Virus record (IMG/VR): IMGVR_UViG_3300032893_000052
Coordinates: 1-57,798 of that record
Direction: 5' to 3' (one strand)
From: a virus
Lineage: Duplodnaviria > Caudoviricetes
Length of the DNA stretch: 57,798 nt
The notes beneath the pieces are model-generated. The model did no database searches. It worked only from the letters and a program-made list of their open reading frames with translations, and had not been told where the DNA came from. Made by a program: the position numbers and the translations under genes. Positions 6,857 through 57,798 of the stretch are shown piece by piece. Every line of letters begins with the position of its first letter. The stretch's first letter is position 1.

Positions 6857-7489
6857 TTAGCCCGTGAGTGGGAACGTAAAGCCTGACGTGAAGCCTTGGT
6901 TTGCTGCGGGTGAATCAGGCGGTGGCGGAGGAACTACGCTTCCTGTTCCACTGTCTACTGGCGCGACGAACAACGCTTTGTCTACCGACAGAATGTGTCC
7001 ACCAATCAGATGATCCGAACGTCCTAAAGCGTTGAGAATCTCTCTCATATAGGCGCCTGGACGATAGTCGTAGATTGGTGACCCCACGGACGTACGAATA
7101 TCAATCTTCGTACGATGTCCTCTGAAGTAGGCAAGGTCAGTTCCTATTGTCACATTGTCAGCTGTGACTAGCGTACCTACGATTGACACAGCATAGGCTG
7201 CTCCGTGCGACGGCTGCGTAATGTTCAAGTAGATCTTTGCAGTGGTAACTGAAGTGCCTGGACGTACTGCAGTTACTGTGACAGCTACTCCATTCACCAC
7301 ACCGTCTTCTATTGTGCGGTACACTTTGTAAGAAGCCACAGAGGACGCTGCTGCATCCACCTTGATGGGATTCGAGAAGATCAGCTCAAGCGTGTCTTTG
7401 GCCCACAAGTTGACCTTGATCAGCTTGGCAGAGGCTGTACTCGGATCGCCTCCAAGCGGAAAGACAAGCTCATGTACTAGATGGGCCAT
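6857..7489 (-). CDS. Putative tail/baseplate structural protein with Ig-like fold
   Basis: Beta-rich N-terminal half (TLELIFSNPI...Y.V.I.GTL), located directly after the fibre genes. Confidence 0.5.
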   Translation of the reverse strand: MAHLVHELVFPLGGDPSTASAKLIKVNLWAKDTLELIFSNPIKVDAAASSVASYKVYRTIEDGVVNGVAVTVTAVRPGTSVTTAKIYLNITQPSHGAAYAVSIVGTLVTADNVTIGTDLAYFRGHRTKIDIRTSVGSPIYDYRPGAYMREILNALGRSDHLIGGHILSVDKALFVAPVDSGTGSVVPPPPPDSPAANQGFTSGFTFPLTG

Positions 7490-7495
7490 GTTCTA

Positions 7496-43814: not shown

Positions 43815-44342
43815 TCATTCCTCCGTTTTTTGCACAGCAGCTCTACGCCGCTTAGCTGTTTTGGGTGTGGGCGTTTCTTCCGCCACATTTTCCGAACTCT
43901 CTACGTCACTGTCAGTTGCCCAATCAGGCAATCCAACAGGTGCTTCTTCCGTGCTCGTAACTACCTCTGTTGCTTTCACAGACGTGTCTTCTGTTGAAAT
44001 AACAGGAGGAAGCGGCAGTGGCAATCGATCCCATACATGCTCTGTTGGAATCTCTTCCACACCACTCATCTTCAACAACATGTTGAAGTCTGATCGTTCG
44101 GTAGCACGACCACGCGGCTTAACTGCGCAAATGCCTTGCTTGTCGAACGCAAATGCTGTGTTTCCAACAACAACCGTACGACCAGCAAGACGCTTGCAAC
44201 GTGCCTTCATCGTGTCTCCCGAGAACACTGACGTGTCTGTCTTAAACTGCGCTGCCGTTAGTGGGGAAATCGCGGCCATCAATGACTTTGGAGCTGTGTT
44301 ACGTCGCTTTTCGAAACGACGACGCAAATGCTCTTCATCCAT
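43815..44342 (-). CDS. Hypothetical protein with acidic disordered C-terminus
   Basis: 175 aa with a GAGG RBS; occupies the usual post-capsid position. Confidence 0.7.
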   Translation of the reverse strand: MDEEHLRRRFEKRRNTAPKSLMAAISPLTAAQFKTDTSVFSGDTMKARCKRLAGRTVVVGNTAFAFDKQGICAVKPRGRATERSDFNMLLKMSGVEEIPTEHVWDRLPLPLPPVISTEDTSVKATEVVTSTEEAPVGLPDWATDSDVESSENVAEETPTPKTAKRRRAAVQKTEE

Positions 44343-44352
44343 TGGTACCGGC

Positions 44353-45006
44353 CTACTGTACCGCCTCTTGGGATGAGAGGTCCACTAGCTTCGCCTTGAA
44401 CGCGTCGAAGGTCTGGAAATCACCTACATCTTTCATGACCTGGTCCAGCAGTAACGTCCGTCTGTAAAGTTCACGGACTGTCTCCCATTCGGTCTTAAGA
44501 TGACAACGATCACACAACGTAACTAGATTCTCTAGCCGGTGTGCTTCTTCAGGTGAATCGAAGCATCGTTCTGGAACGACGTGATGTACATGCGCGCGCT
44601 TACCTCTGACTGGAGTCATGCAGCGCCGACAAGTGTACTTATCACGCTCACGCGCCAAAATTTTCTGTGCCTTACCAATTGAGTACCAACCACCATCGAA
44701 CTTATGGTTGCCGCGGCCTGCTTGCTCATTCCTTCCATTCTTGGACATACGATGTGACATAGCACAGACACGAGAACAGTATATGTTCCAAGATTGTGCA
44801 GCAGTATTCGCACATCCTGGTTTAGCACATTGTGGACGATTCACATGGTGACGTGACTCCACAATGCGCACATGCATATCCTCATCATAAAGTAACGCAC
44901 CAGGATTATTAGCCAGATATGTTTCTGGCGTAATCCCATGCGTTCTCTGTAGATGAGAATTGGTAATCATTTTGAATGAACGCGTACAAAGTTTACATTG
45001 AACCAT
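44353..45006 (-). CDS. Free-standing HNH homing endonuclease with Zn fingers
   Basis: CKLC...HLQRTH, CAKPGC...YCSRVC, RDKYTCRRC...HVHHVVP...NLVTLCDRCH. Confidence 0.9.
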   Translation of the reverse strand: MVQCKLCTRSFKMITNSHLQRTHGITPETYLANNPGALLYDEDMHVRIVESRHHVNRPQCAKPGCANTAAQSWNIYCSRVCAMSHRMSKNGRNEQAGRGNHKFDGGWYSIGKAQKILARERDKYTCRRCMTPVRGKRAHVHHVVPERCFDSPEEAHRLENLVTLCDRCHLKTEWETVRELYRRTLLLDQVMKDVGDFQTFDAFKAKLVDLSSQEAVQ

Positions 45007-45013
45007 TAAGAAG

Positions 45014-45056
45014 CCTCCTAGGCACCTGGTCTACTACCAAGCACCTAGGAGGTCAA
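45014..45056 (-). promoter_or_regulatory. RBS-sequestering hairpin with an embedded promoter for the HNH gene
   Basis: CCTCCTAGGTGCTTGGT-AGTAG-ACCAGGTGCCTAGGAGG forms 17 bp including GU pairs. TTGACC-N17-TAGACC overlaps it. Confidence 0.8.
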
Positions 45057-45063
45057 GTGGATT

Positions 45064-45088
45064 ATCCAGCTACTTGAGCAAGCTGGAT
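45064..45088. terminator. Stem-loop after the capsid gene
   Basis: 8-bp stem ATCCAGCT/AGCTGGAT. There is no U-tract on the minus strand, so it may be a stabiliser or leaky terminator. Confidence 0.45.
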
Positions 45089-45101
45089 TTATTCACTTCA
45101 A

Positions 45102-46553
45102 TCAACGTGTCAAACGACCTACGTTGATGAATCTTAACCATTTTTTAGGGGCAAACAGGATCGGGGTCCCGTAGAGCAACACCATCCAGCGGAACGCAGG
45201 AGCCAACACCGCAAGATCCATCCGCAGCATAGGAAGCAGCTGACGGAAAGTGAGAACTGACTGTGTCATTTCACCCATGTACGCAATCTCCGTGAACGGC
45301 AGCAGGAAGTTCACATCATTGACTACCGTAGTAGCCGATGCTGCCTGGCTGGTCACAGGAACCTGCAGAATGAGCGAGTACTGCGTTACATCCGTCGGAT
45401 GTGCTGTACCGGAGGCCTGCGGCTCGGTACGGTAGATGCGCAGATACTCTGGAGGAAACGCGCCAATTGAACCAGGGTTGGTTGTGGTAAGCGCGATATG
45501 GTTTCCGTTGTTCTTCTGCGTTGCTGTGATGTCCTGCCCGTTACCGGCGATGAGAGTCGGGGCAGACTCACCAAAGCGATTAGCAGCAGTGACAGCATAT
45601 GCGTAGTTGTTTGTACCAGACGGCGCGCCCTTGTTGAAATCACCGTCTGTACCCGAACCAGTAGACGCTGTGATCGAAGCAGGCGAAGCCGGTGCGTTTG
45701 GTGAAGTAGCTGCAGACGGAGGAGTCGGCAGACGCTTCAAGAACACGTCTGGATTCAGCTCCATCACACCCGCCTGGGTCATGACAGAGTTGACGCTGAG
45801 ACCGACCATCCCGTTCTGTGGAGCTGGAAGCTGGATGCGCTCCTTCGGGTAGAAGGTCTTCACGAGGTCAGAACCTACGCGAGTACCCAACCACAGATCG
45901 GTTGGATAAGCGAAGTTCTCCACCAACTGGTTCGCACCCTCCTCAACGTCAGCTTCCTGGATCGGCTGTCCTTCCAGGTCAATGAACGAGGTTGGGTCGA
46001 TCAGAGCATCGAGACCATCCCACTGCTCAGCCTCACCGTCGAACGCAAGACTGCTGTCACCCTTGAACAATGATGACTCAATCCGCTCAAGCAACCAGAG
46101 AATGCCGTTCTGATTCTCGAGCGCGATCACGTCACCGTGTGCTGGGTGCACAACCGTCATCTGGTGAGTCACCTCACGTGTAGTTCCAATGAACTTCACG
46201 AGTGAAGTGCGACGGGCGTAGCTGGTATCCTGGGTTGGAGGCAACTCACCCTCTTGCACGAAGGCGAATGCATCCGAACCGTAGTCAATCAGCTGGTTGT
46301 ACTCTTCGACAGTGGAGTACGCTGGGCTCTTGGGAATCTTCTTCCACATCTTGATGTGGTGTGCGGTGTAAGTCAGCACCTTGAGGCTGCCTTCCAACGA
46401 CTCCACACGAAGTGAAGAGCCACCAGTCTGGTTAGTGATCTGGTAGCCAGCTTCGAGCGCCTTAGCCAAGTCTCCAATGGACTGACCTTGGTCGATACCG
46501 AAGCCGTTGAGATTCCCCGCTGCGTACGGAGAGTAGTTAGACAAACCGATCAT
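45102..46553 (-). CDS. Major capsid protein
   Basis: KALEAGY...GGSSLRVESLE, KKIPKSPAYSTVEEY, IE.SLF.GD, WDGL, QLLPMLRMDLA, LYG...APKK; SPO1/Twort-like MCP with AAGGAG RBS. Confidence 0.95.
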   Translation of the reverse strand: MIGLSNYSPYAAGNLNGFGIDQGQSIGDLAKALEAGYQITNQTGGSSLRVESLEGSLKVLTYTAHHIKMWKKIPKSPAYSTVEEYNQLIDYGSDAFAFVQEGELPPTQDTSYARRTSLVKFIGTTREVTHQMTVVHPAHGDVIALENQNGILWLLERIESSLFKGDSSLAFDGEAEQWDGLDALIDPTSFIDLEGQPIQEADVEEGANQLVENFAYPTDLWLGTRVGSDLVKTFYPKERIQLPAPQNGMVGLSVNSVMTQAGVMELNPDVFLKRLPTPPSAATSPNAPASPASITASTGSGTDGDFNKGAPSGTNNYAYAVTAANRFGESAPTLIAGNGQDITATQKNNGNHIALTTTNPGSIGAFPPEYLRIYRTEPQASGTAHPTDVTQYSLILQVPVTSQAASATTVVNDVNFLLPFTEIAYMGEMTQSVLTFRQLLPMLRMDLAVLAPAFRWMVLLYGTPILFAPKKWLRFINVGRLTR

Positions 46554-46583
46554 GGTTGTTCTCCTTCTTTCCTTGGCTTCGGG

Positions 46584-47693
46584 TTACTGCGCGCCGCCCA
46601 TTGCCTGAGCGACGAGACCGCGGACCGCTGGAGACATCTCCCCAGTCGAGTCGAACTTGACCAAATCGAGTTGGTTCATTTGGCCCTTCTTAACCAACTC
46701 GAACATGGTATTTGTGATCTGTGCTTTGTTGATTTGGTCGCTAGATACGTCGAGCCCGCCAGGACCAAATGACTTCTGCATCACCTGTGGCTGTCCAGGC
46801 TGCTGTTGGCCACCTGGAAGCGCGCGAAGATGCGACTTAGGACCACCGACAGGTGCGCTAGCCGCAGCCGCGTTCACTTCAACACCGCCAGCAAGCTGCT
46901 GACCGATGCCAATGACTGCTTCAGCAAACCCCTTATTGAAGGTGTCTTGGTGATTTGCGAATCCACCAAAGCTCTTCTCCAGCGCTTCCACGCGAGCAAC
47001 CAGCGAACCCACTGTGTTGTTGATTGCCTTGTTTACAGCCTGGATAGTGCGTGCCTCAGCTCCTTCGAGAGCAACACCGATCGCACGAGTCATCTCGTAC
47101 AGAATTGGTGACATCTCGATCCCCTTGCGGAGATTCGGCTGTGTCTGAGTTGCAGCGTGAAGCGACTTCTTAGCATCAGGCTCAATGTCCTCTTGCTTTG
47201 AAGTACCAGCATTGGTCTCCGGAGCCTTAGGAGCATCGTCCTCTGTACCAGACGCAGGAGCCTTACCAGGAGTCGTGGACGCCTTCGCAGTACCACTCTT
47301 CTTGGTCTTGTCCATGTCGTCCTTGTCATCGTCGTCATCGTCTTTGTCGAAGGGAAAACCCTTCTTCACCGCCCAGGACTCAGCTTGCGTAAGCTTGCCG
47401 CCCTTAGCGATCTTGTCAGCGATTGCACGACGAGGATCCTCACCCTTAACGATCAACACCTCGGCAGGTGTGAGCGCCTTGGACTTGGAAACCTTGTTTG
47501 CCAACGCCTTCTTCACGCCGTTGTAATCAGTGCCGTTGTCGTCGATTCCATCCTCATGCTCGTTCTGGTCAGTCTGGCCTGTGCCAGCCCACGAGCCCGG
47601 ATTCGAGTCGGACGGCGTGTGGTAGAGCTGGCCTTTCGCCAACCCTTCCAGCCTCGACAGGGCTGCGTGGAACTCGTCTCGATTGATAGACAT
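46584..47693 (-). CDS. Putative capsid scaffolding protein
   Basis: Between protease and MCP; acidic and coiled-coil; many Phi-x-K-[S/A/G] sites. Confidence 0.75.
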   Translation of the reverse strand: MSINRDEFHAALSRLEGLAKGQLYHTPSDSNPGSWAGTGQTDQNEHEDGIDDNGTDYNGVKKALANKVSKSKALTPAEVLIVKGEDPRRAIADKIAKGGKLTQAESWAVKKGFPFDKDDDDDDKDDMDKTKKSGTAKASTTPGKAPASGTEDDAPKAPETNAGTSKQEDIEPDAKKSLHAATQTQPNLRKGIEMSPILYEMTRAIGVALEGAEARTIQAVNKAINNTVGSLVARVEALEKSFGGFANHQDTFNKGFAEAVIGIGQQLAGGVEVNAAAASAPVGGPKSHLRALPGGQQQPGQPQVMQKSFGPGGLDVSSDQINKAQITNTMFELVKKGQMNQLDLVKFDSTGEMSPAVRGLVAQAMGGAQ

Positions 47694-47702
47694 GTATGCC
47701 TC

Positions 47703-48551
47703 CTACTGAGTTCCTACTGTTGTGAAAATGGCATCAGCCAGCGCCTTAGCCAACGGAAAGCTGTAACCTCTACGTGCTTGCAAATACCCCACAGCCTCTT
47801 GATATGAGATCTTGTCTGACTTGTGGACATGACCTGGCATCGTCTGCACTTTGGCAGAGCCTTCAAGCGATTGAACGCGAAGCACTCCACCCATACCGCC
47901 AACAGACAGAGCCTTTTCTTCGTCCTCTTTCTTCTTATCCTTGAGCTCTACACTCATGCTCTTGAGTGCAGGACCACATGTGCAGCAGCCGCCTTTGCAC
48001 ACGTCATCCCAAGGATGGAGACACCATTTCTGACTGCCGAGAGACTTTACAATCTCAGCCCACGTGTTTGTGTTGACTGGCGAAGCAGTGATTGCTACGT
48101 CTTGCAGCCAGCACTTAGCAATGGTGTTGCCTTCGCGGCGAAGCACCTTGCCTTGAATGGAGAAACCTACCTTACGGCTAGAGTTGTTCTCTGCGAGAGT
48201 AGTGATGTGTTCCCACCAATACTCGCTACGCTCTTTGCCCTTGTAGAGAAAACCCTTGAGCCACAAACCAGCCGGTGTCATACGGCACTCAGCAGGTTCA
48301 CCAACCTTGTGCTCAGGTCCCTCTTTGTGATCGTCGTTGATGTAGCCGTATTTCAGGAAATAGCCGTAGTCGATACCGTTCTGTCGTACAACCTCACCTT
48401 GAAGGTCACGATCATCGGTAGACGCTATCCCCTGAACCCAGCGCTTCCCATCCTTCGCCTCTGCCTTTGAAAGCTTCTCGACAGGCACGAAGAAATGGAA
48501 AGTGTCTCCATCTCCTAAGAGCTTGTCGGTAGGTGTGTCGTCGAGGCGCAT
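47703..48551 (-). CDS. Prohead (maturation) protease
   Basis: GIAST..RDLQGE, GYINDDH, GL..KG.L, GFSIQG, VAIT..PVN.NT. Confidence 0.93.
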   Translation of the reverse strand: MRLDDTPTDKLLGDGDTFHFFVPVEKLSKAEAKDGKRWVQGIASTDDRDLQGEVVRQNGIDYGYFLKYGYINDDHKEGPEHKVGEPAECRMTPAGLWLKGFLYKGKERSEYWWEHITTLAENNSSRKVGFSIQGKVLRREGNTIAKCWLQDVAITASPVNTNTWAEIVKSLGSQKWCLHPWDDVCKGGCCTCGPALKSMSVELKDKKKEDEEKALSVGGMGGVLRVQSLEGSAKVQTMPGHVHKSDKISYQEAVGYLQARRGYSFPLAKALADAIFTTVGTQ

Positions 48552-48613
48552 CGTCGAAAGGGAGTAGGCTCACAGGCCACATCCTCCCTTTACTGGAGCG
48601 ATGCTGTTCAACG

Positions 48614-48643
48614 ACGGTATGACGGCTGTATCTGAGCCGTCAA
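48614..48643 (-). promoter_or_regulatory. Sigma70-like promoter of the head operon, with an internal inverted repeat
   Basis: TTGACG-N18-TACCGT. The perfect inverted repeat TGACGGCT-N7-AGCCGTCA (48620..48642) covers the -35 and spacer. Confidence 0.65.
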
Positions 48644-48670
48644 GAATAATCTCAAGCTGAGAGTCGAAAA

Positions 48671-48916
48671 CTACTTGGCTAGGTACAGCGGCGGGCCAAG
48701 GTCGCGCGTCCATACCAATGGCAAGCGCACTTCAGAGTCACAGCTCTTACACACCGCGTACACCCCATCATGCTTCAACAGTATGATCTTGCTGCCGCGC
48801 ACTTTACCGCCGCCGTCTGACGTGCTTTTGATTATCACTTCAGAGCAGTGTGCACACGTCAAGACAGCCGATATACCGGCGTCACCACTTGTCTCGAGTG
48901 TGAGATGTACTGCCAC
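48671..48916 (-). CDS. Zn-ribbon protein (Com-like)
   Basis: LTCAHCSEVIIK...AVCKSC, i.e. two CxxC pairs. Confidence 0.65.
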   Translation of the reverse strand: MAVHLTLETSGDAGISAVLTCAHCSEVIIKSTSDGGGKVRGSKIILLKHDGVYAVCKSCDSEVRLPLVWTRDLGPPLYLAK

Positions 48917-49113
48917 TAATCATCCAAATGGTCATCGGTAAGGATTTCCTCACCGATGTGTGAATAGTCGGGATCCTCATCAGGATCATACTTGAACGCA
49001 CGCTGCGCCCACGCAATCGTGGCGTCTAGGTCAGTAGACGGAGGTAGCTCGTCAGGTGTTTCCTGACCTTGTGCAGGCACTTGTGGCGCTGGTGCGTCGT
49101 CTCTGTCCGGCAT
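48916..49113 (-). CDS. Small acidic protein (candidate antitoxin/inhibitor)
   Basis: 65 aa, Asp/Glu-rich, with an AAGGA RBS, directly after the zeta-like kinase. Function is inferred. Confidence 0.6.
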   Translation of the reverse strand: MPDRDDAPAPQVPAQGQETPDELPPSTDLDATIAWAQRAFKYDPDEDPDYSHIGEEILTDDHLDD

Positions 49114-49149
49114 AGGTAGTATTTATCCTTCCATACTATACAAGTCGGA

Positions 49150-50223
49150 TCACACGGATTGTCCACCAGAAAGATACCCCGAGTACCTCTCAGGTTCATG
49201 GATCGTCGGCTCTTCGCCGTATTTTCGAGAGTACAGCTTCCGTGGTTCCTCTCCCGGCGGTACGTTGTTGTCAAATGCTACAGCGTCATGCGTTAGTTGG
49301 GCTAACCTATCAAAATTGCCTGGAATTTTGCTGTAGGCGTCCTCGGCAAAGTCCAACGGAACCCAACGACCTGTGTTGAGTGCGCGCTCTGCGACGCGGC
49401 GTTTTCCTTCCTGAATGGGAAGATGTACGCCGACCAAGCGCACGTGGTAGCCCTTGGCCTTTAGATCCTCGACGCGCTTAGCCATCTTGTCATAGTCCGC
49501 ACCCACGCCGTCCAGCAAAACATTCTTGCGCTGAGCTAATGCTGTCTCGCGTATGTTTTTCGCTATGTCGGATGACTCTTCGTGAGTCATGCGTGCAGCA
49601 TTGAGCGCACGTCCCTTCACAGCCTCCTGATACTCAGGCAACTGAGCTTTGATTCCGTCTGGATCCACAGGAACAAAGTCGCTTATGTCCCAACCTTTGG
49701 TAGCGGATGACTTGCCCGAACCTGGGCCGCCCATCATCATGATCGCTACAGGTTTCTTGTCCGGCGGTACTGGTTTGGCTTGACTTAAGAAGTGGTCTGC
49801 GATCTGAGCGTGCAGCTGTGCGCGTTCTGGCGTGTATTGTCCGTTAGCTTGCTTGTACACACTCTGTGTGTCGGACGGAAGGTTATCGAGCTTGTCAACG
49901 AAACCCTGACTGACTAAGTGACTATACAAAGCACCGCTGTCTAGTGGCATATCCGGCGGAATCTTCATCCGCTTGGAATGCTTCTTAGACGGACCAGGCT
50001 CGGACGCAGGGTCATACGGTTTGGCTGTTGGGCTGGCGGCGGCGTTCTCTTCAGTTTGAGCTTCGCCTGGACTAACGTAGTAAGTTTCTTCAAACGTCTG
50101 ACCGTTACGCGTAACCTGACGCTTCATTGGCACGAGACTCTCAGAGCCACCGTGCTTACAGATCAGATCTAGAATCGGGTCTGACTGACCTTTCATTAGG
50201 TTAAATAGACGTTCAACTGACAT
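49150..50223 (-). CDS. Zeta-toxin-family P-loop kinase with N-terminal extension
   Basis: MMGGPGSGKS, VDPDGIK..LPEY, HEESS, NVLLDG, GYHV, R..ER...GRWVP, FDN. Confidence 0.9.
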   Translation of the reverse strand: MSVERLFNLMKGQSDPILDLICKHGGSESLVPMKRQVTRNGQTFEETYYVSPGEAQTEENAAASPTAKPYDPASEPGPSKKHSKRMKIPPDMPLDSGALYSHLVSQGFVDKLDNLPSDTQSVYKQANGQYTPERAQLHAQIADHFLSQAKPVPPDKKPVAIMMMGGPGSGKSSATKGWDISDFVPVDPDGIKAQLPEYQEAVKGRALNAARMTHEESSDIAKNIRETALAQRKNVLLDGVGADYDKMAKRVEDLKAKGYHVRLVGVHLPIQEGKRRVAERALNTGRWVPLDFAEDAYSKIPGNFDRLAQLTHDAVAFDNNVPPGEEPRKLYSRKYGEEPTIHEPERYSGYLSGGQSV

Positions 50224-51020
50224 TACAAGCCTCCGATAGCCAACCTCACCACTGCTGGCAGTTCAGGCTTCTTGCCAACGGCTGCATTGTCGTCTAATGC
50301 TGCGTAGTAATCAGATAACTGCACTACGTACGAATCGATGGTGTCACGGTTTCTACGTAGCAGTTCTTTCTGTGCCAACGTACGTGGCTTGTATACGTCG
50401 TGTCTCCAGTTAGCCAGTTTCAACTGGTTGTTGGTGAGGATTTGTACTTCCTTCACCAATCCGTCTGTATCCTTGATTGCTAGATGATAGGCGCGATAGC
50501 CAGCACGCGGCGTTTCGATATAGTCGTCGTCAGACAGTACTTGGTAACGTGCCTTCACACGCTCAGCTGTACGCATAACCTCCTCGGTAGTGTCTACAAC
50601 CAACCGTACACCTGTCAAATCCTGTAGGTCTGCAGCTGATTTGTAATGTGGCTTATCATGAAGCTTCGCCACAATACTCTCAAGTGTCTTGACACGGCCT
50701 TCTACACGCGTACCTGGCAACGACAGTTTCCGCATGTCTGCGATGAAACGTCCATAGTTAGCTCTATGCTTTGGTAGCTCGTCACTAGCAATCGCAACGT
50801 GCTCTTCGAATGATCGTCCACCTGGCATTTTGCCAGCATACTGATCACGCAGCGACTGAAGCCTGGGCGTAGTATCAACGATGTCAGTGCCGCGTGAGTC
50901 TAGCGCAGCCTCCACAGTCTTCACAACGACACTGCTTTTGGGCGAGTACCCTCGGCTTTCATCATACCAACGTCCGTAGGAATCTCTGCGTAATCGTGAA
51001 GCGAAATACCGTGTATCCAC
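50223..51020 (-). CDS. RelA/SpoT-family small alarmone synthetase
   Basis: GRVKTLESIVAK, DLTGVR, DDYI..P..GYRAYH, EVQILT; no hydrolase domain. Confidence 0.9.
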   Translation of the reverse strand: MDTRYFASRLRRDSYGRWYDESRGYSPKSSVVVKTVEAALDSRGTDIVDTTPRLQSLRDQYAGKMPGGRSFEEHVAIASDELPKHRANYGRFIADMRKLSLPGTRVEGRVKTLESIVAKLHDKPHYKSAADLQDLTGVRLVVDTTEEVMRTAERVKARYQVLSDDDYIETPRAGYRAYHLAIKDTDGLVKEVQILTNNQLKLANWRHDVYKPRTLAQKELLRRNRDTIDSYVVQLSDYYAALDDNAAVGKKPELPAVVRLAIGGL

Positions 51021-53866
51021 TGACTAAACTCTGCTTCATCAGCGGTTCTGTCAGTCAGATCGATTGTTACGTATGGGACTGGGATAGTAGGTGCAGGAAG
51101 TTCAGCAGCGCCTGCACTGCCTATTACACCACGTGCTTTCGCGTTCTGTTGCAGTACCTGCACAACGACAGGGTCAACCAGCACTTCCTGTACTAGTTGC
51201 AGAACACGCAACGGATCGGGTTCGGTGGAAAAATCGTGTCCCCACTCCAATGCTACAGTCATAAGCGCTTGATTGACTGCTTGGTCCCAGGACGCGTGAT
51301 AGTAGCTGAGAAGACGTTCTACCTCACGCGCAAACGTACCGCTAGCATGGTAGGTCTGAAGACCGAGCAAAGACACTCCCTGCATGTCCAACACACGAGA
51401 CAGGTAGTGCGGTCCCATCATCCGACGTACATTCGGATCAATCTTCTCCCGTCCTTGAGAAGCGACAGAGAACAGAGGCATGCTAGAAGGTGTGGTGTTC
51501 TTCATCACCACAAACGCAGTCAGCATCTTAGCGTCCACGTACACCTTACGTGAGCCAAGAGACACGAGCGATCCATCGATCACTACCTGGTCTGGTGTCA
51601 AAGCCGCCAGCTCAACTGCACGCACCTTGCCCTGATCGAGCAAAGCCAGTGCAACTGCAGTCATCTGGTCTTTGAGCTTGTCGGACTTGTTGAACAAATC
51701 GCTGTAATACGTACGCAGACCAGGAAGCCTGGAATCAACCAAAGCGTTCTGTTGGTTGATCGCCAGCTTAGGCAGTTGCCTTATGTCGGCATGTACGTAC
51801 GTGAACCTAAACTCACCTGTGTTTGGATCACGCCAACGACCAACCCACAAGTTCTTTGGGTCGTAGCGATTGTACTTTGAATTCCACTCAACCTGTGACG
51901 GATCGCAGTCTGGACAGCGTGTAAGCTTACGTCCGTCTGGCGTGAAATACTCCGGATTCTTATCATACAACGGTTCTGACTGGTGGAGCTTGGCATCTCC
52001 GTAGAAGTCAGCGCGATCTGGATCTCCTGTAGGCGCGTTGGTATATCGCAGGAGATTTCCTGACTGGTCTTTGTAGTAGAACCGTGGATTGTCGTCATCC
52101 CCCTCACGATGATCATACTCGTGTGTAGGATCAACGTTCTTGTCCCTTGTGAGAAACTGCAGTGCTTTGCGAAGCACACTTTGTTGCTCCGCTAGCGTAA
52201 TAATCCAGTGAGTCTCCCAGGACTTCACTAAGCCGAGATCCTTGCCCATGCCAGCGTCGGATAGCTTCTCCAAAAGCTGTGACACCATGTCAGCACGGTC
52301 ATGTTCCGGAGCTGTACGAATCGCGCGCATAGCTGTCTTGGCTTGCGCAATGATGGCAGCTTTCTCGGGTTTGGTCTGTTCCCAGCGCATCAGCACTTGT
52401 GTGAGACGAGGAAGCACGACCTTCGGATCTAGGTGCTGCTGAGACTCGGCTCGCTCTTCAGGAGTTTGGAGGTGTGCACTCTGTTCTCTCTCTTCTTCCG
52501 TAGCACCTCTCCGTGAAATCTGATCTACACCTTCATCATCATCGCTACTTCCGCTGATACGACTCTGCTTGTCTGTAGCTGCACGTTGTGCGTCTAGAAA
52601 GTAGTTGTTGATCTTGCCGTTCTTACCTGCAAGGTAGCCTGTGAAGTTTACACCAGCCTTGTTTGGATCGAAATTGTCAAGCGCAGACTCTATCGCTTTG
52701 TAGCCAACAGAGTCAGGCATCAGGAACACGTGGTCTGGTGTAGTGCCACGTGAATCAGGCAAGTCTTGCCCAATCCACTCACTCATCACCTCGCGCTTGT
52801 TGCCTTCAAAGAACGGCGTATTGGTCATACGGTCGGCTGCTTGAACCAGCTTCGGCCAATACTGTTTCGCTGCGTGCTGAACTAGTGCTGTCTTCTGTTG
52901 TGGTGTTACATCCAGCTCACGATCACGTGTAGCGTAGTTGTACTTCCACTTCATGGACGAGTGACTAAGCACATCGTCCATAGGTGGGAGCTTGTTGAAG
53001 TCAAGCGGAGGTTTCGTCTCCGTCTTTTCAGGCTCTGGTTTTGGTTTCGGCGTATCCGAACCTTCCGAAGGAACTACGGCAAGCTTTCCACGTGTTGGCG
53101 TACGTCCTAAGGTTTCTTCAATCGCGCCGTACTCATCGTCTAGCAGCTTCTTTGCGTGCGCTAGCGACACTGCGCGGGACACGCCGCCGTCCTTCTTTTG
53201 TAGTTCCTCCGGAAACGACGGGTGATAAACTACCTTGTATTGACGCTCAGGATCTGTTGACCAATCAATCTTGTTGTCTTTGGTGTTGACTTTACCAATT
53301 ACAGGAATGATGTTGAACCACGGACGTCCTTCGGGATCATTGATCGTCTGTGTGTTGGACGTCTGTAGAAACCAGTGCTCATACGCAGCATAGCTGGAAA
53401 AACTCTTCTTGCTCGCACCTTCTCCGTTCTTGCTAAACAGTGACTCAGATGCGTTGTCGTTACGCCGTAGCGTAAGCTTACCGTCACCTTCAGACACCAG
53501 GGTACAATCGGCACCCATGCGGGAGTGACGTACTGGAATAGCAGTACCAGGCTGACTTAGCGCTGTGATGCACGCCTGTCTGTATGCCTTCTCTGGCTCA
53601 ACACCTTCTGTAGCGCCCGCTACCTCTACAGTGTGAGATTTTGGAACGACCTGGAATGCTGCGCGCTCTGTCGTCTCGCCTGTACGAGGGTTTGTGATCT
53701 CTACCTTGTACGGCTTCTCATATATCTCAGGCACAGCACCAGCACCGTGTGCTTCTGCCTTCTCGCCAGTATAATCATACTGCCATTTGCCATTATCCCA
53801 CCAACGCCGGACATATTTGTGCCCCGGGCGTTCGGTGGAACCTTGTGGCGCGCCGCTGTCATTCAT
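50921..53866 (-). CDS. Multidomain protein: sigma70 region-2-like segment plus degenerate topoisomerase IB-like domain
   Basis: AIESALDNFDPNKAGVNFTGYL matches the sigma region 2.2-2.3 pattern. LPGLR...AVALALLDQGKVR...L.PDQV.I.G...LF...LQTYHAS...VALEWGH...LVDP matches the TopIB pattern. The ORF itself is certain; the domain calls are by eye. Confidence 0.65.
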   Translation of the reverse strand: MNDSGAPQGSTERPGHKYVRRWWDNGKWQYDYTGEKAEAHGAGAVPEIYEKPYKVEITNPRTGETTERAAFQVVPKSHTVEVAGATEGVEPEKAYRQACITALSQPGTAIPVRHSRMGADCTLVSEGDGKLTLRRNDNASESLFSKNGEGASKKSFSSYAAYEHWFLQTSNTQTINDPEGRPWFNIIPVIGKVNTKDNKIDWSTDPERQYKVVYHPSFPEELQKKDGGVSRAVSLAHAKKLLDDEYGAIEETLGRTPTRGKLAVVPSEGSDTPKPKPEPEKTETKPPLDFNKLPPMDDVLSHSSMKWKYNYATRDRELDVTPQQKTALVQHAAKQYWPKLVQAADRMTNTPFFEGNKREVMSEWIGQDLPDSRGTTPDHVFLMPDSVGYKAIESALDNFDPNKAGVNFTGYLAGKNGKINNYFLDAQRAATDKQSRISGSSDDDEGVDQISRRGATEEEREQSAHLQTPEERAESQQHLDPKVVLPRLTQVLMRWEQTKPEKAAIIAQAKTAMRAIRTAPEHDRADMVSQLLEKLSDAGMGKDLGLVKSWETHWIITLAEQQSVLRKALQFLTRDKNVDPTHEYDHREGDDDNPRFYYKDQSGNLLRYTNAPTGDPDRADFYGDAKLHQSEPLYDKNPEYFTPDGRKLTRCPDCDPSQVEWNSKYNRYDPKNLWVGRWRDPNTGEFRFTYVHADIRQLPKLAINQQNALVDSRLPGLRTYYSDLFNKSDKLKDQMTAVALALLDQGKVRAVELAALTPDQVVIDGSLVSLGSRKVYVDAKMLTAFVVMKNTTPSSMPLFSVASQGREKIDPNVRRMMGPHYLSRVLDMQGVSLLGLQTYHASGTFAREVERLLSYYHASWDQAVNQALMTVALEWGHDFSTEPDPLRVLQLVQEVLVDPVVVQVLQQNAKARGVIGSAGAAELPAPTIPVPYVTIDLTDRTADEAEFSQWIHGISLHDYAEIPTDVGMMKAEGTRPKAVSL

Positions 53867-53867
53867 C

Positions 53868-54221
53868 TCAGTCAGAGAGTACTACGTCTTCATTGGAAAT
53901 TTCGTACCGTCTCAACCCACCTTCTGACGTTTCGGTCAGAAGGCCTGCTCGAACCAGTTCATCAATGACTGGTCCGGTAAACCCGCGACGGAGGAGTTCC
54001 CCCCTTGTGGCTGGCCTCCGCTTGTGATCGGTGTGGTCCTTGATACGAGAGAGTAGTCCGTGGACCCAGATGGCGCCTTGACCGGCAAGCTTGGCGATGG
54101 CTGCAAGTTGGGCTGCTCTGGCGCGACTCCCAAGAGATCCTGTTGATCGAGCAAGAATCCTATGATCTCCTGCCGTGCCTGCTCTGGCGGTTGCCCCTGA
54201 AATGTGTATGCGTTGCCCCAT
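53868..54221 (-). CDS. Possible overlapping winged-HTH-like ORF (start uncertain)
   Basis: Stops 1 nt before the next ATG. TRGELLRRGFTGPVIDELVRAGLLTETSEGGLRRYEI looks like a helix-wing. Confidence 0.35.
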   Translation of the reverse strand: MGQRIHISGATARAGTAGDHRILARSTGSLGSRARAAQLAAIAKLAGQGAIWVHGLLSRIKDHTDHKRRPATRGELLRRGFTGPVIDELVRAGLLTETSEGGLRRYEISNEDVVLSD

Positions 54222-55018
54222 ATCTTACTCGCGATCTCCATCAACTGTGGGTCGGGCGCAGAACCAATACGTCCTAGCAGTTGTTGTACACCTTCAAGCG
54301 TCTCTACGTCGATGGGAGGTGGACCCATTCCCATCATGGGCATCATGCCAGGTATCATGCCGGGCATCACTGGCTGCATAGGCATTCCAGGAGCCTCGGT
54401 TCCTGGAACCGTTGGACCTATATCGTTGGGAAGTATTGCTTTGGAAGTGACGAACATCCGCTTGAACGCTTCGACAGTAGTCTCAGTCATACTGTCGAAG
54501 AAACGCGGATTGTCGTAGTGCATAAGATAGGCTGCTTTAGCTTCGCGTGGACTCTCAAAACCGAGCATGACCTTATCTTCATCATACGTCTTGAAGTCAG
54601 GCTTACGCACTTGGTGTACAATGAAAACCTTGTCTGACTTCTCGTTTGGACCAAGGAACACATCCACTTGGTCACCGTCAGCACCTTCTGTACGCCGAAT
54701 GTACCCATATGGATACGACATCTTCGTCTTGCCACTCTCTCTAGAGTGTGGGTCATACCAATCACGGTATTGTCCCTTGTCGTTCTCAATCGAGATGTCC
54801 AGTCCCTGGAAGTTCACACGACGAACGACCTTGCGTCCGCTGGACTTCTTCCAACTGACTGAACGGGTGGTGTCTACATCAAACACGTCAAAGTGACATG
54901 CCATCTCAAGCACGTCACTGGAGTGGTCGTGATCGTGCGCGGTAGTGGACTTCTTTACGGAACAAGCTCCGCTGTTACACGGCTTGCCTGTCGCGCATGA
55001 GTCACAACAAGCACCCAC
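53936..55018 (-). CDS. Protein with a polyvalent-protein-type inorganic pyrophosphatase (InPase) domain
   Basis: GLDISIENDKG...MSYPYGYIRRTEGADGDQVDVFLG...YDEDKVMLGF...AY; Cys/His-rich N-terminus and Pro/Met-rich linker. Confidence 0.85.
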   Translation of the reverse strand: MGACCDSCATGKPCNSGACSVKKSTTAHDHDHSSDVLEMACHFDVFDVDTTRSVSWKKSSGRKVVRRVNFQGLDISIENDKGQYRDWYDPHSRESGKTKMSYPYGYIRRTEGADGDQVDVFLGPNEKSDKVFIVHQVRKPDFKTYDEDKVMLGFESPREAKAAYLMHYDNPRFFDSMTETTVEAFKRMFVTSKAILPNDIGPTVPGTEAPGMPMQPVMPGMIPGMMPMMGMGPPPIDVETLEGVQQLLGRIGSAPDPQLMEIASKIWGNAYTFQGQPPEQARQEIIGFLLDQQDLLGVAPEQPNLQPSPSLPVKAPSGSTDYSLVSRTTPITSGGQPQGGNSSVAGLPDQSLMNWFEQAF

Positions 55019-55020
55019 AC

Positions 55021-55293
55021 TTACCCCTCATCTGTAAGAGACTTTAGCTTAAGACTGTGCTGCAATCGACTGTCAGCGTCTTTGCGAACTTCTTCAGCAA
55101 TGCGCTGAATGATCAATGGACCAACAGGCTGATCCGCTGCTTGAATAGCTTTTGCAAGTTCTTTCAGTGCACGCTGGTGTTCAATGCTGTCTGCAATCAG
55201 ATCACACACTACTGCAAACACACCCCTATTCTTAGGATGTGATAAACGATTCACCCCTGGTGACGTAACCTCGTCATCTTCAACAGCGCTCAT
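55021..55293 (-). CDS. Hypothetical protein
   Basis: 90-aa helical ORF packed in the operon. Confidence 0.7.
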   Translation of the reverse strand: MSAVEDDEVTSPGVNRLSHPKNRGVFAVVCDLIADSIEHQRALKELAKAIQAADQPVGPLIIQRIAEEVRKDADSRLQHSLKLKSLTDEG

Positions 55294-55298
55294 GAGTG

Positions 55299-55430
55299 TT
55301 ACTCGTCATCGTCGGAATCGTCGTCGTCTTCAGGGTCAAACCAAAACGGATCCGGGTGATACCACGCACCTGGCTCTTTGGCGGATTCGTCTCCCTCGTT
55401 GGGGAGTTGCTGTTGCGTATCTTCAGGCAC
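55299..55430 (-). CDS. Small acidic protein (43 aa, below the ORF-track cut-off)
   Basis: GTG start; MPEDTQQQLPNEGDESAKEPGAWYHPDPFWFDPEDDDDSDDDE; fills the intergenic gap almost exactly. Confidence 0.65.
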   Translation of the reverse strand: MPEDTQQQLPNEGDESAKEPGAWYHPDPFWFDPEDDDDSDDDE

Positions 55431-55432
55431 AG

Positions 55433-57055
55433 CTACACTAGCTTAAGGAACGACTCCAACGCCTTGTAAGCAGTCGGTTCCACATACGTACTCTGACTGC
55501 CTGCATTCGTTGGAGGCGACAACGGACCAGCAGCTTGTGGTCGTGGCATACCTTGCGGTGCTTGCATTGTGTTTGAACCAGCAGCGGGCTGCACTTGCGT
55601 CATACCAGGAACAGGCCCTTGCCTCAGCGGCATCGGATTACCCATGATAGGCTTTCCCTGATCCGGTGACAGCAATGCCTGCAGGCTCGCTAATGGATCG
55701 CGTGGCGCTCCACCTGGCGGTGAACCACCAGGTACACCAGGAGGACCACCAGGACCGCCACCTTGCTGCGTTCCCATGGGCGGTTGACCTTGTGGCGTTC
55801 CCATAGGCGGTTGACCTTGGCTTGCAACAGGTGGCTGTGCTGCAGGGGGCGGTGGTTTAGGCAGCGTCATACCCGGCAGACCTGTAGCAGGACTCTGTTG
55901 TTGTCCGCCACCCATGCCCATACCTGGCTGCATCATTGGTGGTTGTGGACGCGGTTGCGGCGGTGCCCCCATACCGGGAGGGGACACACCCATTCCTTGA
56001 CCGCCACCCATCCCCATGCTGGGCGGTGGTTGCTGTGGCGGACGCATTGGTGGCTGTATCTGTGGTGGCTGCTGTGGCGGTACTTGTCCAAACGGACTAC
56101 CGGAACCTGTAGGCGACGGCGGCATGCCTCCAGGGCCAGGCATTTGAGGTGGACGCACTTGCCCAGGAGGAGGTTGACCCGTACCCATCGCGCCTTGACC
56201 AGGTAGCATGCCACCCATCATAGGCGGCGGTGCTGGTTTGGCAAGCGTCGGCATGCCTCCACCCGCTTGTGGTGTAGGAGAAGGCGCACCCATTCCTGCT
56301 GAACCTGCGGGCGGAGGAGCGCCCGGCGTTCCCATTCCCTGTCCTGGTGTCTGTGGCATTCCCATTCCAGGTGGTTTTGGTGCTTGTGCCATAGGCATTC
56401 CCGCACCCGGACCTTGTAGATTGGGTTGCGGCTGTCCTGGCATAAGCGTACGTCCACCTTGCGGCGTACTGTTCATCGGACCTTGTGGCGGACCACCAGG
56501 AGCTTGACCAAACTTGGCAGCGAACCGCTCCATTGGAGACTGACTGTCGTTGCCCATCTGCTTGTGTGCAGCAGCTGCTTGCAGATGTTGTGATGTCTCT
56601 TGTGGACTAGACGCACCTGCAGCTAGACGCTCGTGATGAGCAGCAGCGGCTTCATGGTCATCTTTGCCGAAGTCTTTGTGCGCAGGGTGGAACGGATCAC
56701 CATAGATAGGGATTCCAGATGGTGCCATACCAATCGGATTACTCTGACTATTGGGCATTGCACGCGGCTGCGAAGCACCTGTCATTCCACCACCAGGGAT
56801 CTGCGGTGCACCTTGCTGTAGAGGTACGTCTGGTGTGCCGAGTGCTTTGAGCACAAGTTCCGGACTCAGCTCTGGTACAAAGGCATTCGGACGGTAAGCA
56901 GATGGATAACCGTGAAACGCACCACGAGTAGTGATTGGCGTACCCATTCTGTGGTGCACTTCCGTCCTCTCAGCATGAGAACTCGACTTTGTGATGGGTT
57001 CCGCAAACGTCGGATCAACCCAGTTGAGAGGCCGCTTAGCGCCGTGGTTTGTCAT
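55433..57055 (-). CDS. Pro/Gly/Met/Gln-rich intrinsically disordered protein
   Basis: 540 aa. A His/Ala helical motif (HPAHKDF..DDHEAAAAHH) is followed by about 340 aa of low-charge P/G/M/Q sequence. Confidence 0.85.
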   Translation of the reverse strand: MTNHGAKRPLNWVDPTFAEPITKSSSHAERTEVHHRMGTPITTRGAFHGYPSAYRPNAFVPELSPELVLKALGTPDVPLQQGAPQIPGGGMTGASQPRAMPNSQSNPIGMAPSGIPIYGDPFHPAHKDFGKDDHEAAAAHHERLAAGASSPQETSQHLQAAAAHKQMGNDSQSPMERFAAKFGQAPGGPPQGPMNSTPQGGRTLMPGQPQPNLQGPGAGMPMAQAPKPPGMGMPQTPGQGMGTPGAPPPAGSAGMGAPSPTPQAGGGMPTLAKPAPPPMMGGMLPGQGAMGTGQPPPGQVRPPQMPGPGGMPPSPTGSGSPFGQVPPQQPPQIQPPMRPPQQPPPSMGMGGGQGMGVSPPGMGAPPQPRPQPPMMQPGMGMGGGQQQSPATGLPGMTLPKPPPPAAQPPVASQGQPPMGTPQGQPPMGTQQGGGPGGPPGVPGGSPPGGAPRDPLASLQALLSPDQGKPIMGNPMPLRQGPVPGMTQVQPAAGSNTMQAPQGMPRPQAAGPLSPPTNAGSQSTYVEPTAYKALESFLKLV

Positions 57056-57222
57056 GTAATGTCCTTCACCTTCGCCGGAATCGCTGCATGCGGAAAGTAG
57101 AGCGCGATCTCTTGATCAGTCAGCTCTAATACAGTGTCGTTTGACAGAAGCAGTTGCGTTCTTGGTCCATGCTTCGTCAGTACTTCTACAACACGAACAA
57201 CAGTCCTTGACAACAAAGACAC
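57052..57222 (-). CDS. Hypothetical protein (56 aa, below the ORF-track cut-off)
   Basis: MSLLSRTVVRVVEVLTKHGPRTQLLLSNDTVLELTDQEIALYFPHAAIPAKVKDIT; ATGA overlap with the next gene. Confidence 0.65.
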   Translation of the reverse strand: MSLLSRTVVRVVEVLTKHGPRTQLLLSNDTVLELTDQEIALYFPHAAIPAKVKDIT

Positions 57223-57225
57223 AAC

Positions 57226-57699
57226 TCACCCCACTGGGTTCCGAGTAACATGACGTCCATCCACGGACCCACCACCACGACCTGCGTTGTAGTTCTCCTC
57301 TTCCTTCAACTGAGCGGATACCAACTCGCGTACTTTGCTCTTCTCAGAGTCTGAGAACTGCGTGAGGATCTCTGCTTGTTGCGGCTCCATTGTACGGAAC
57401 CGTTGTGGGAAGATCACTGTAAGCAGTGCGAGCTGTGTCGGCAGCATTCCCACAGGTGAAGCACTACGGTGAACAGCGTCAATCACCATGTTCTTTGCCC
57501 ACTCATAATCGAGTGTACCATCAGGATTACGGCGGATGACTGACATAGCGTGTGTGCTAGGTCGGTTCTCCATCTCCTTGTATTGAGCGCCGAACCGTTG
57601 GTGCGGAGCGAACGACTCATACGACGGATTGACCTGTTGTCCTGTCGCCTTTACTAGTCGCGGATCTTGGATGTGCAACGGAATTCGCGGTAAGTTCAT
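57226..57699 (-). CDS. Hypothetical protein
   Basis: 157 aa, ATGA-coupled to the upstream ORF; RLVKA motif near the N-terminus. Confidence 0.75.
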   Translation of the reverse strand: MNLPRIPLHIQDPRLVKATGQQVNPSYESFAPHQRFGAQYKEMENRPSTHAMSVIRRNPDGTLDYEWAKNMVIDAVHRSASPVGMLPTQLALLTVIFPQRFRTMEPQQAEILTQFSDSEKSKVRELVSAQLKEEENYNAGRGGGSVDGRHVTRNPVG

Positions 57700-57798
57700 G
57701 GCGTGCCCTTCTTCTCAGCGGCTGCAGGAGCATCAGGTACGACAGCAATCGGCGGCGCTGCCGGAGGTACAACACCTGTCTTGTACAGAAAAGCCTGA
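57696..57798 (-). CDS. 3' end of a gene truncated by the window edge
   Basis: Open frame ...QAFLYKTGVVPPAAPPIAVVPDAPAAAEKKGTP* with an ATGA overlap. Confidence 0.6.
   Translation of the reverse strand, partial: QAFLYKTGVVPPAAPPIAVVPDAPAAAEKKGTP

Follow-up and report, generated by a model that had tools for sequence, protein, structure and literature searches.

We analysed the complete 57.8-kb contig of the IMG/VR virus record IMGVR_UViG_3300032893_000052 (positions 1 to 57,798, hereafter the window), which encodes a phage structural module and carries almost all of its genes on the minus strand. In this large phage, whose capsid is Herelleviridae-like, a gene cassette at 48916-57699, upstream of the head genes, is probably an effector module associated with the head, and we put the probability of this reading at about 0.6. 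The cassette would be the unfused counterpart of a phage-type polyvalent protein, and its products would be made late, trimmed by the prohead protease, packaged, and ejected with the DNA. The conserved core of the module consists of a protein of 157 amino acids (aa), one that is P/G-rich, a 'minor head' protein with an InPase domain, a 981-aa protein which we call the hub, and a small Zn-ribbon open reading frame (ORF). One variable slot carries genes for a RelA/SpoT-type synthetase and a zeta-like kinase, which behave like cargo that can be exchanged.

An earlier note on this DNA had called the cassette a candidate new system. It is not a new system, since the class is already described: the idea of InPase, RelA/SpoT and zeta domains, fused or solo, lying beside virion genes and delivered with DNA, was already put forward in PMC5512222 and PMC5576092. 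Other proposals of the note agreed with our results. The cassette does sit in the head module, upstream of the protease, scaffold and major capsid protein (MCP) genes, and its link to polyvalent and MuF-type proteins was supported; fused versions of the same parts exist in relatives.

Conserved core and variable slot

The features on which the argument depends are the following, all on the minus strand.

57226-57699, minus strand: 157-aa conserved head-module protein, LVK-A at residues 15-18, fold unassigned
55433-57055, minus strand: 540-aa P/G/Q/A/M-rich protein, N-terminus of ~120 aa and C-terminus of ~45 aa conserved around a low-complexity core
53936-55018, minus strand: InPase protein, 360 aa, PF18823 E 4.3e-39
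50921-53866, minus strand: hub protein, 981 aa, no Pfam match, 104 representatives by HMMER
53771-53821, minus strand: aromatic beta-hairpin tag of the hub, HKYVRRWWDNGKWQYDY, hub residues 16-32
52547-52996, minus strand: putative sigma region-2-like helical domain of the hub, residues about 291-440
50984-52186, minus strand: inactivated TopIB fold of the hub, residues about 561-961, with R749, K774, Q837, H877 and L896
50223-51020, minus strand: RelA/SpoT-type small synthetase, longest ORF 265 aa, PF04607 E 7.3e-16, start uncertain
49150-50223, minus strand: zeta-like P-loop kinase, 357 aa, PF06414 E 3.7e-31, with a 130-aa N-terminal leader
48916-49113, minus strand: 65-aa acidic ORF, isoelectric point (pI) 4.05, predicted kinase partner
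48671-48916, minus strand: 81-aa CxxC...CxxC ORF between cassette and protease
47703-48551, minus strand: prohead protease, phrog_1028 E 3.4e-50
46584-47693, minus strand: scaffold, N-terminal L-A-K-G/A (LEGLAK-G)
45102-46553, minus strand: MCP, N-terminal L-A-K-G/A (GDLAK-A)

The scaffold/MCP stretch (45102-47693) matched phrog_752 with E 2.6e-103. The MCP was 43-47% identical to capsid proteins of Herelleviridae-type Bacillus phages and matched the solved SPO1-type Gp6.1 (9vel, E 1.6e-116). All cassette ORFs at 48916-57699 lie on the minus strand and are tightly packed. Gaps or overlaps measure 1-4 nucleotides (nt), the exceptions being the 981-aa gene, which is preceded by 69 nt, and the 65-aa gene, which is preceded by 36 nt. 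The tight minus-strand arrangement of genes that had been described was thereby recovered; its supposed end just before the protease was not, as the 81-aa CxxC...CxxC ORF intervenes.

Seven related IMG/VR contigs (L001/L004, L002/L007, L003/L006, L008, L009, L010 and L011) were compared with the window, making eight contigs in total; L010 and L011 gave identical numbers and look like one phage. In all seven, InPase and a TopIB-like domain were found directly upstream of the Zn-ribbon ORF, protease, scaffold and MCP. The common order was (portal ...), 157-aa protein, ..., InPase/TopIB-like, Zn ribbon, protease, scaffold, MCP. The portal gene is not within the window and occurs upstream in relatives, 4-8 kb further upstream in the contigs reaching far enough (L001, L008, L009, L010 and L011) and often with an intein.

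The hub was present in all seven related contigs. The 81-aa ORF is part of the conserved block, with homologues at the same place in L001-L003 and L008-L011, and weak treble-clef and DUF7562 matches were obtained for the L008 copy only. Orthologues of the 157-aa protein occupied the same position in L001 (78% identity), L003 (58%), L008 (66%), L009 and L010 (33-37%), and also L011; the protein matched no Pfam or PHROG family, and a protein atlas search with it gave nothing usable. The 540-aa protein, which also lacked a Pfam or PHROG family match, had orthologues in L001, L003 and L008 only. Its residues 121-480 consist of 25% P, 19% G, 12% Q, 9% A and 9% M, in agreement with the P/G/M/Q richness described earlier.

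The slot between the hub gene and the Zn-ribbon ORF differed among the contigs. It was empty in L008 and held a 151-aa Cys-rich ORF in L003. L002 has zeta there, along with a 99-aa ORF rich in Pro, Asp and Glu and a 910-aa protein that matches an ATLF-type metallopeptidase; L001 has a 495-aa protein, two RelA/SpoT genes and an HD_4 hydrolase. The slot of the window contains RelA/SpoT, zeta and the 65-aa ORF. RelA/SpoT and zeta were each present in two of the eight contigs, and together only in the window, which points to a cargo slot and argues against a conserved three-enzyme pathway. The coordinated phosphate/nucleotide pathway that the note had envisaged was therefore not supported.

Two features of the cargo genes were also observed. 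At L001 14820-17186, two tandem RelA/SpoT genes are followed by HD_4 (SpoT-type hydrolase), apparently a set of synthetases and hydrolase, an arrangement resembling a toxin with hydrolase immunity. The L002 910-aa (6913-9645) and L003 151-aa (9206-9661) cargo proteins both carry C-x2-CGLCCY...CC.VYE at their N-termini, a possible metal site.

Fused and split forms of the module

InPase, RelA/SpoT and zeta are on three separate ORFs in the window, as had been stated, and only the hub combines domains, none of which is catalytic. The same parts were found joined in relatives. L009, L010 and L011, whose MCPs are 69-71% identical to that of the window, have a single ORF of 1508-1734 aa consisting of the hairpin tag, TopIB and InPase. 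The TopIB of this fused protein matched PF01028 (E 1.4e-15), with R, H and Y at the Arg-II, His and Tyr columns.

Further combinations were found among the representatives of the hub family. In P0010, a dead TopIB end (65% identity) is joined to the zeta leader and kinase (52% identity), and P0012 is likewise a fusion of hub and zeta. The hub is fused to the 495-aa cargo of L001 in P0002 and P0003. InPase precedes the hub in P0033 and follows it in P0027 and P0030. Several effector domains were present in one polypeptide in P0063, P0067, P0071, P0103, P0010, P0033 and P0030. These fused forms suggest that the window cassette is the disaggregated state of a polyvalent protein, and that the parts act, or travel, together. 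The variable slot shows the interconversion of polyvalent proteins and solo-effector operons within one lineage.

The hub protein carries an inactivated TopIB fold

The hub had no Pfam or PHROG match, with PF01028 giving none in the window protein, and no match was obtained by tblastn against 50,697 phage records. An exhaustive HMMER search with a threshold of E<=1e-3 detected 104 representatives. Of these, 49 reached E<=1e-30, and the majority of the 104 have only residues about 560-960 in common. Pattern scans of metagenome and genome contigs with the alignment of the 11-sequence close family gave no confirmed relative.

A model of the C-terminal half (AF2, 36-row alignment) had a predicted local distance difference test score (pLDDT) of 90.9 and a predicted template modelling score of 0.87. 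All 21 Foldseek matches of this half at E<=1e-3 were type IB topoisomerases (TopIB). The best was the Deinococcus enzyme (2f4q, E 2.9e-7), and the human, variola and Leishmania enzymes were also among the matches.

The catalytic set of TopIB is Arg-Lys-Arg-His/Asn-Tyr. When the family profile was aligned with poxvirus TopIB (E 1.3e-4), LQTYHAS fell on ...LRTYGVN and ...EVLVDP on ...KRAYMA. This alignment places Q837 of the window protein at the Arg of LRTY and L896 at the Tyr of KRAYM, columns which we take to be Arg-II and the nucleophilic Tyr. Q837, L896 and R749 were invariant in the 11-sequence close family, and K774 and H877 nearly so. At the catalytic columns, of which the first two are not reliably aligned in distant rows, nine of 107 aligned TopIB-domain rows, including the window, read R-R-K-Q-H-L. 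Another eight rows, more distant, carry R and Y in the Arg-II and Tyr columns; six of them (P0063, P0065, P0067, P0070, P0081 and P0091) have H or N between. P0063 and P0067 were above the PF01028 cut-off (E 1.4e-15 and 1.2e-11) and contain InPase and DUF5661 in the same polypeptide, and P0103 contained a sub-threshold ART-PolyVal.

The fold and these alignments together confirm the hub TopIB as catalytically dead, with Gln at Arg-II and Leu at the Tyr. Since both Arg-II and the nucleophilic Tyr are lost, the fold could at most bind or clamp DNA, with no cutting and no covalent DNA intermediate. In the hub, a phage head operon would then have taken up a TopIB fold for DNA binding without catalysis, and the intact TopIB in close relatives would make it a clear case of conversion from enzyme to binder.

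The N-terminal 570 residues were modelled with a pLDDT of 82, and Foldseek searches with the N-terminal half against PDB and BFVD gave nothing at E<=1e-3. The best VIA-align chain for residues 293-431 was SigB in an RNA polymerase open complex, with a Z of 8.1 and a root-mean-square deviation of 2.9 over 90 residues, in a range (Z below 8-13) where VIA-align cautions that helical domains can be a common arrangement. Sigma region-2 domains made up 12 of the 50 listed rows, on the same hub residues. Sigma70_r2 was detected below the Pfam cut-off in the relative P0067 (E 3.5e-4), and PhyR_sigma2 in one of 26 (E 0.17). For a sigma region 4 (-35 binding) domain, the structure matches of residues 480-543 were generic helical bundles only. 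Residues 1-290 form a beta-rich domain in the model, for which a protein atlas search gave no usable match. Of the sigma-like/dead-TopIB fusion that had been proposed, the dead TopIB stood, on fold and profile alignment, and for the middle domain being sigma-2-like there is moderate support from the model comparison (Z 8.1, with Pfam below threshold).

Near its N-terminus the hub carries the aromatic hairpin tag, in which R21, Y30 and Y32 were invariant in the 11-sequence close family. The model places strands at residues 20-24 and 27-31 with low pLDDT. The motif of the tag, K-Y-x-x-R-x-W-x-G-x-x-W-x-Y-x-Y, occurred 53 times in 109 family proteins.

Enzymes of the cassette and a predicted kinase partner

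The InPase, RelA/SpoT and zeta assignments made earlier all exceeded Pfam cut-offs: PF18823 at 133.9 bits (cut-off 26.8), PF04607 at 58.9 bits (cut-off 27) and PF06414 at 108.6 bits (cut-off 22.3).

The InPase protein consists of a Cys-rich N-terminus, the InPase domain (residues 65-188), a Met/Pro linker and a conserved C-terminal domain (residues 186-360). The acidic columns IE, D..DV and DEDK were conserved across 10 sequences. Its PHROG matches were to families of 'minor head protein' and 'virion structural protein'. Orthologues contain inserts of GNAT (L001), intein/LAGLIDADG (L003) or DUF5661 (L002 and L008). A CC-x2-C-x2-G-x2-C cluster, a possible metal site, was noticed at InPase N-termini (window 54950-55018; L001, L002, L003). 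Low complexity rich in Met, Pro and Gly was noticed both in the 540-aa protein (55700-56700) and in the InPase linker (54300-54420, GMPMQPVMPGMIPGMMPMMGMGPPP), and its kind is conserved in orthologues.

The best solved relatives of the RelA/SpoT protein were small alarmone synthetases (2be3, E 8.6e-7), with GRVK, D..G.R and GYR.YH aligned. Its longest ORF starts at GTG 51020, 100 nt inside the hub gene. An alternative start at GTG 50924 overlaps the hub stop (GTGA) and would give a 233-aa protein without RRDSYGRW. GTGA-type stop/start coupling was seen elsewhere in the cassette, and neither start has a good Shine-Dalgarno sequence. An independent assembly of the likely source run spans 48711-51164 and agrees throughout, with no gap, so that nothing obvious marks the hub/RelA junction as an assembly indel. 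In PMC12226406, the conversion of syn motifs is reported to have left nucleotide specificity unchanged.

A CCCAAAA heptamer (about 50938-50944) lies in the X XXY YYZ register 15 nt before the hub stop. A -1 slip there would shift reading into the frame of RelA/SpoT, so that hub and synthetase would be made as one protein, resembling the fusions found in relatives. This candidate was weakened by the downstream RNA, which was no more stable than shuffles (z 0.52).

In the zeta kinase, Walker A (GGPGSGKS) and D-x-D (VDPD) aligned to PezT and zeta. Against 50,697 phage records the kinase had only distant matches of 27-34% identity, including a 'minor head protein' ORF of Cyanophage PSS2. Its 130-aa leader contains LFNLMK-G followed by VTRNGQTFEETYY. 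Residues 3-92 of this leader were 34% identical to the leader of the L001 RelA/SpoT protein (E 2e-9), while the catalytic domains of the two are unrelated; a word-indexed search with leader residues 1-100 returned only the protein itself. Of the non-catalytic N-terminal extensions that the note had described, RRDSYGRW of RelA/SpoT depends on the start at GTG 51020 and is gone with GTG 50924.

The gene upstream of zeta is RelA/SpoT and not an epsilon-type antitoxin, and the candidate partner lies downstream. Complex prediction for the 65-aa ORF with the kinase scored 0.64, against 0.03 for the best control; the mark used was reached by 51 of 78 solved complexes and two of 108 mismatched pairs. 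Runs agreed in at least 50% of contacts, with a partner pLDDT of at least 52, and the interface was placed at kinase residues 205-214 and 271-295 and partner residues 27-53. The 65-aa acidic ORF is accordingly a predicted binder of the kinase.

A putative boundary motif upstream of the hairpin

The leaders contain L-F-x-L-x-K-G/A, similar to the N-termini of scaffold and MCP, which are conserved in five phages. In 9row/9rox/9roz the MCP chain has 439 residues, and the first of them aligns to A32 of the window MCP. The 463-residue chain of 5lii has 24 more residues, ending ...VVK, aligned to ...LAK31 of the window. We infer that the shorter capsid chain may be the protease-matured form.

Of the 33 family representatives with a locatable hairpin, 24 had the motif PHI-x-K-[GAS] upstream of it at a distance of no more than 45 aa (binomial 2.6e-12 at p 0.17). 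When all 53 hairpins in the 109 proteins were considered, including the internal ones of polyvalent proteins, the motif preceded 39 of them by 4-35 aa, mostly by 13-15, against a random-position background of 11.5% (p about 1e-25). It was also present in the linkers between TopIB, InPase and DUF5661 in five polyvalent proteins, and at the eight fusion junctions inspected. Within the first 75 aa, nine of 14 head-side ORFs of the window had it, compared with nine of the 39 remaining ones (Fisher p 0.0086). In the N-terminal part of the 540-aa protein, ITK-S, IEK-A and VKK-A occupy an aligned place across orthologues. A strict seven-residue form, L..[LFMI].K[GAS], was too narrow, with seven matches in 53 ORFs.

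These patterns allow a more specific proposal, which we hold unlikely. A portable address, PHI-x-K-[G/A/S] followed about 11 residues on by the hairpin, would mark enzymes for prohead loading and protease trimming, so that cargo could be fused or split at will. The sigma-2-like/dead-TopIB hub would ride in on the injected genome and recruit host RNA polymerase or organise the co-injected enzymes. If motif and hairpin do direct capsid entry, they would be a second sequence-readable capsid-targeting code besides that of T4, and the virion cargo of uncultured large phages would become predictable.

MCP residues 44-57 (LRVESLEGSLKV) and protease residues about 222-235 (LRVQSLEGSAKV) were observed to share a 12-mer, conserved in all four phages compared. 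The PHROG protease family also matches capsid residues 29-76, and the shared element may be a docking or cleavage element.

Other features of the locus

Three small ORFs complete the cassette.

57052-57222, minus strand: 56-aa ORF, 4-nt overlap with the next gene
55299-55430, minus strand: 43-aa acidic ORF, pI 4.05, 17 D+E and 1 K+R
55021-55293, minus strand: 90-aa ORF, no Pfam or PHROG match

No homologue of the 56-aa ORF was found in related loci at E 1e-3. The 43-aa and 65-aa ORFs, both with pI 4.05, correspond to the two small acidic peptides noticed earlier.

A promoter/terminator scan of 44000-57798 stayed at shuffle level (6 against 8.2 and 13 against 10.4) and was uninformative on transcription units. 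The strongest terminator-like site of the region, a 17-bp GC-rich hairpin with a T-rich tail, was at 45014-45052, immediately following the capsid gene. A second wetland metagenome run (X2) contains short contigs that match parts of 48671-57699, seven of 10 compared records being at least 99% alike, so that the phage or a very close relative is present in at least two samples.

The head module is densely populated by selfish elements (L001 15-1517 and 18692-20398; L008 1520-3640; L003 3781-6351; window 44353-45006). HNH genes flank capsid or protease genes, the L003 InPase gene contains a LAGLIDADG intein, and the portals of L001 and L008 gave intein-type matches below the Pfam cut-off. The L001 protease ORF has 568 aa, compared with 282 in the window, with an insert of about 290 aa.

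Proposed role and alternative explanations

If the cassette is a packaged effector module, its proteins would be made late, along with the head proteins, and would enter the prohead, where the prohead protease would trim them after the Lys in PHI-x-K-[G/A/S]. After ejection together with the DNA, they would act at an early stage in the next host. There, the enzymes would disturb nucleotide or cell-wall-precursor pools, the hub would stay on the DNA, and the acidic 65-aa protein would keep the kinase silent in the producing cell.

Several points weigh against this course of events. Packaging, cleavage, delivery and targets are all deduced here from the genes, and the shorter PDB chain is read as a matured form by comparing sequences. 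The motif, a short one with a background of 0.0042 per residue, was defined once the data had been seen, and the 109 proteins tested are relatives, so that the binomial values overstate independence. In the window itself, the hub starts right at the hairpin with no N-terminal PHI-x-K-[GAS] leader, and RelA/SpoT is probably also without one. MuF (PF04233) had no match at E<=0.01 in any window protein, InPase included, and the InPase orthologue of L003 matched it weakly (E 0.0036, 18.5 bits, below the 29.6 cut-off). The sigma likeness comes from a Z of 6-8 for a helical domain, possibly a common arrangement, and the complex score of the kinase and the 65-aa ORF may partly reflect likeness to solved epsilon/zeta complexes.

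The same genes could encode late intracellular factors that are not packaged, inserted at a permissive site of a late head operon and serving, for example, in pyrophosphate (PPi) clearing while DNA is packaged or replicated, shutdown of host metabolism, or late blocking of nucleotide-based defence. The variable slot does show the behaviour of an insertion site for morons, the region is rich in homing endonucleases and inteins, and the leaderless hub and RelA/SpoT of the window would fit, as would the PPi clearance that PMC5512222 also offers as a role of InPase. We nevertheless consider this unlikely, because in relatives these domains are joined with one another and with the conserved hub, the motif at module boundaries matches the start of the shorter capsid chain, and the matched PHROG families are annotated as minor head or virion proteins. 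A mainly structural role is less probable still: the hub, InPase and P/G-rich proteins would form an inner head body or core for DNA organisation, assembly and ejection, and the enzymes would be vestigial or secondary. Such ejection/inner-body proteins are known in phiKZ-like phages (PMC5694885), the low-complexity protein and linkers could serve as spacer or core material, and both the dead TopIB and a core that is conserved in all relatives while enzymes vary agree with it. Against it, the acidic residues of InPase, Walker A and D-x-D of the kinase and the motifs of the synthetase are all conserved, and the more distant relatives keep the R, H and Y of TopIB.

The genes might also be toxin-antitoxin or polymorphic-toxin modules (toxSAS, or zeta with a partner) for addiction, abortive infection, superinfection exclusion or competitor killing, with a coincidental head location. 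RelA/SpoT and zeta are classical toxin families, and the complex prediction has the kinase bound by the small acidic ORF that lies downstream of it. Against this explanation, Herelleviridae are virulent phages and the relatives here are 160-170 kb contigs with Herelleviridae-like capsids, whereas MuF toxins are tied to temperate phages (PMC5576092). MuF toxin genes are usually trailed by small ORFs (PMC5576092), and HD_4 after two RelA/SpoT genes in L001 can be compared with the hydrolase immunity of Apk2 (PMC12226406); these two likenesses favour the toxin explanation, but the leaders of the supposed toxins recur in head-module proteins, and fusions of these toxins with the hub are found in relatives. 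We regard the toxin explanation as very improbable, and it overlaps with virion delivery rather than excluding it. The packaged effector module remains our preferred reading.

Comparison with known systems

The hub shares with bacterial and poxviral type IB topoisomerases the fold, including the N-terminal beta domain and the catalytic domain, and keeps the equivalents of Arg-I, Lys and His. It differs from them in the Gln and Leu at Arg-II and Tyr, in its fusion to a sigma-2-like domain, and in its location among phage head genes. In poxviruses, TopIB is packaged in the virion. The literature searched yielded no direct statement on TopIB of phages in virions or in polyvalent proteins.

The kinase and synthetase belong to the same families as epsilon/zeta, PezAT and small alarmone synthetase toxins, and a small kinase partner is also common to them. 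In the window, however, the candidate partner is downstream and acidic, and the kinase has a 130-aa leader common to other cargo.

The closest described class is that of polyvalent proteins (Iyer, Burroughs, Anand, de Souza, Aravind 2017, J Bacteriol; PMC5512222), in which 2 to 15 effector domains are combined per polypeptide, solo versions occur in the same contexts, and proteins with InPase and RelA/SpoT are predicted to be packaged. The repertoire of InPase, RelA/SpoT, zeta-like kinase, GNAT and metallopeptidase (the last in relatives) is common to both, as are the location next to virion genes and the predicted delivery with DNA. True fused members exist in this lineage, whereas the window enzymes are separate genes. 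In the main text of PMC5512222, 'sigma' occurs 0 times and 'topoisomerase' once, in the reference list, so the hub domains are absent there, although its supplement may differ. Neither that main text nor the literature searched contained the sigma-2-like/TopIB hub with its inactivation, architectures which supplements may list, and the same main text and literature contained neither the fused-split series nor the signature of motif and hairpin. Processing is proposed in PMC5512222 to be carried out by built-in metallopeptidases, whereas the lineage described here has putative prohead-protease sites at module boundaries.

MuF toxins are head-module proteins with variable toxin domains, for which delivery with DNA was proposed (PMC5576092, Jamet 2017), and the Apk2 MuF toxins are accompanied by hydrolase immunity (PMC12226406, Paulet 2025). 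The likeness lies in head-module toxin domains, including RelA-like ones, in a small downstream ORF presumed to give immunity, and in hypothesised head loading. The MuF/Apk2 proteins are single fusion proteins of temperate phages, whereas no MuF domain was detected in the window, and the L003 orthologue had a sub-threshold match only.

T4 and phiKZ-like phages load ejected proteins by N-terminal propeptides that are cut by the prohead protease (PMC5694885). For the capsid cleavage sites of Herelleviridae, no direct statement was found in the literature searched. In the internal proteins of T4 and in Alt, and in the ejection proteins of phiKZ and SPN3US, the leaders end in a motif that is also cut in the capsid protein, and unrelated cargo shares a leader, as is proposed for the lineage described here. 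The motif in those phages is L/I-x-E or S/A-x-E, in contrast to the putative PHI-x-K-[GAS] read from the genes here, and in this lineage the conserved aromatic hairpin would remain on the mature protein.

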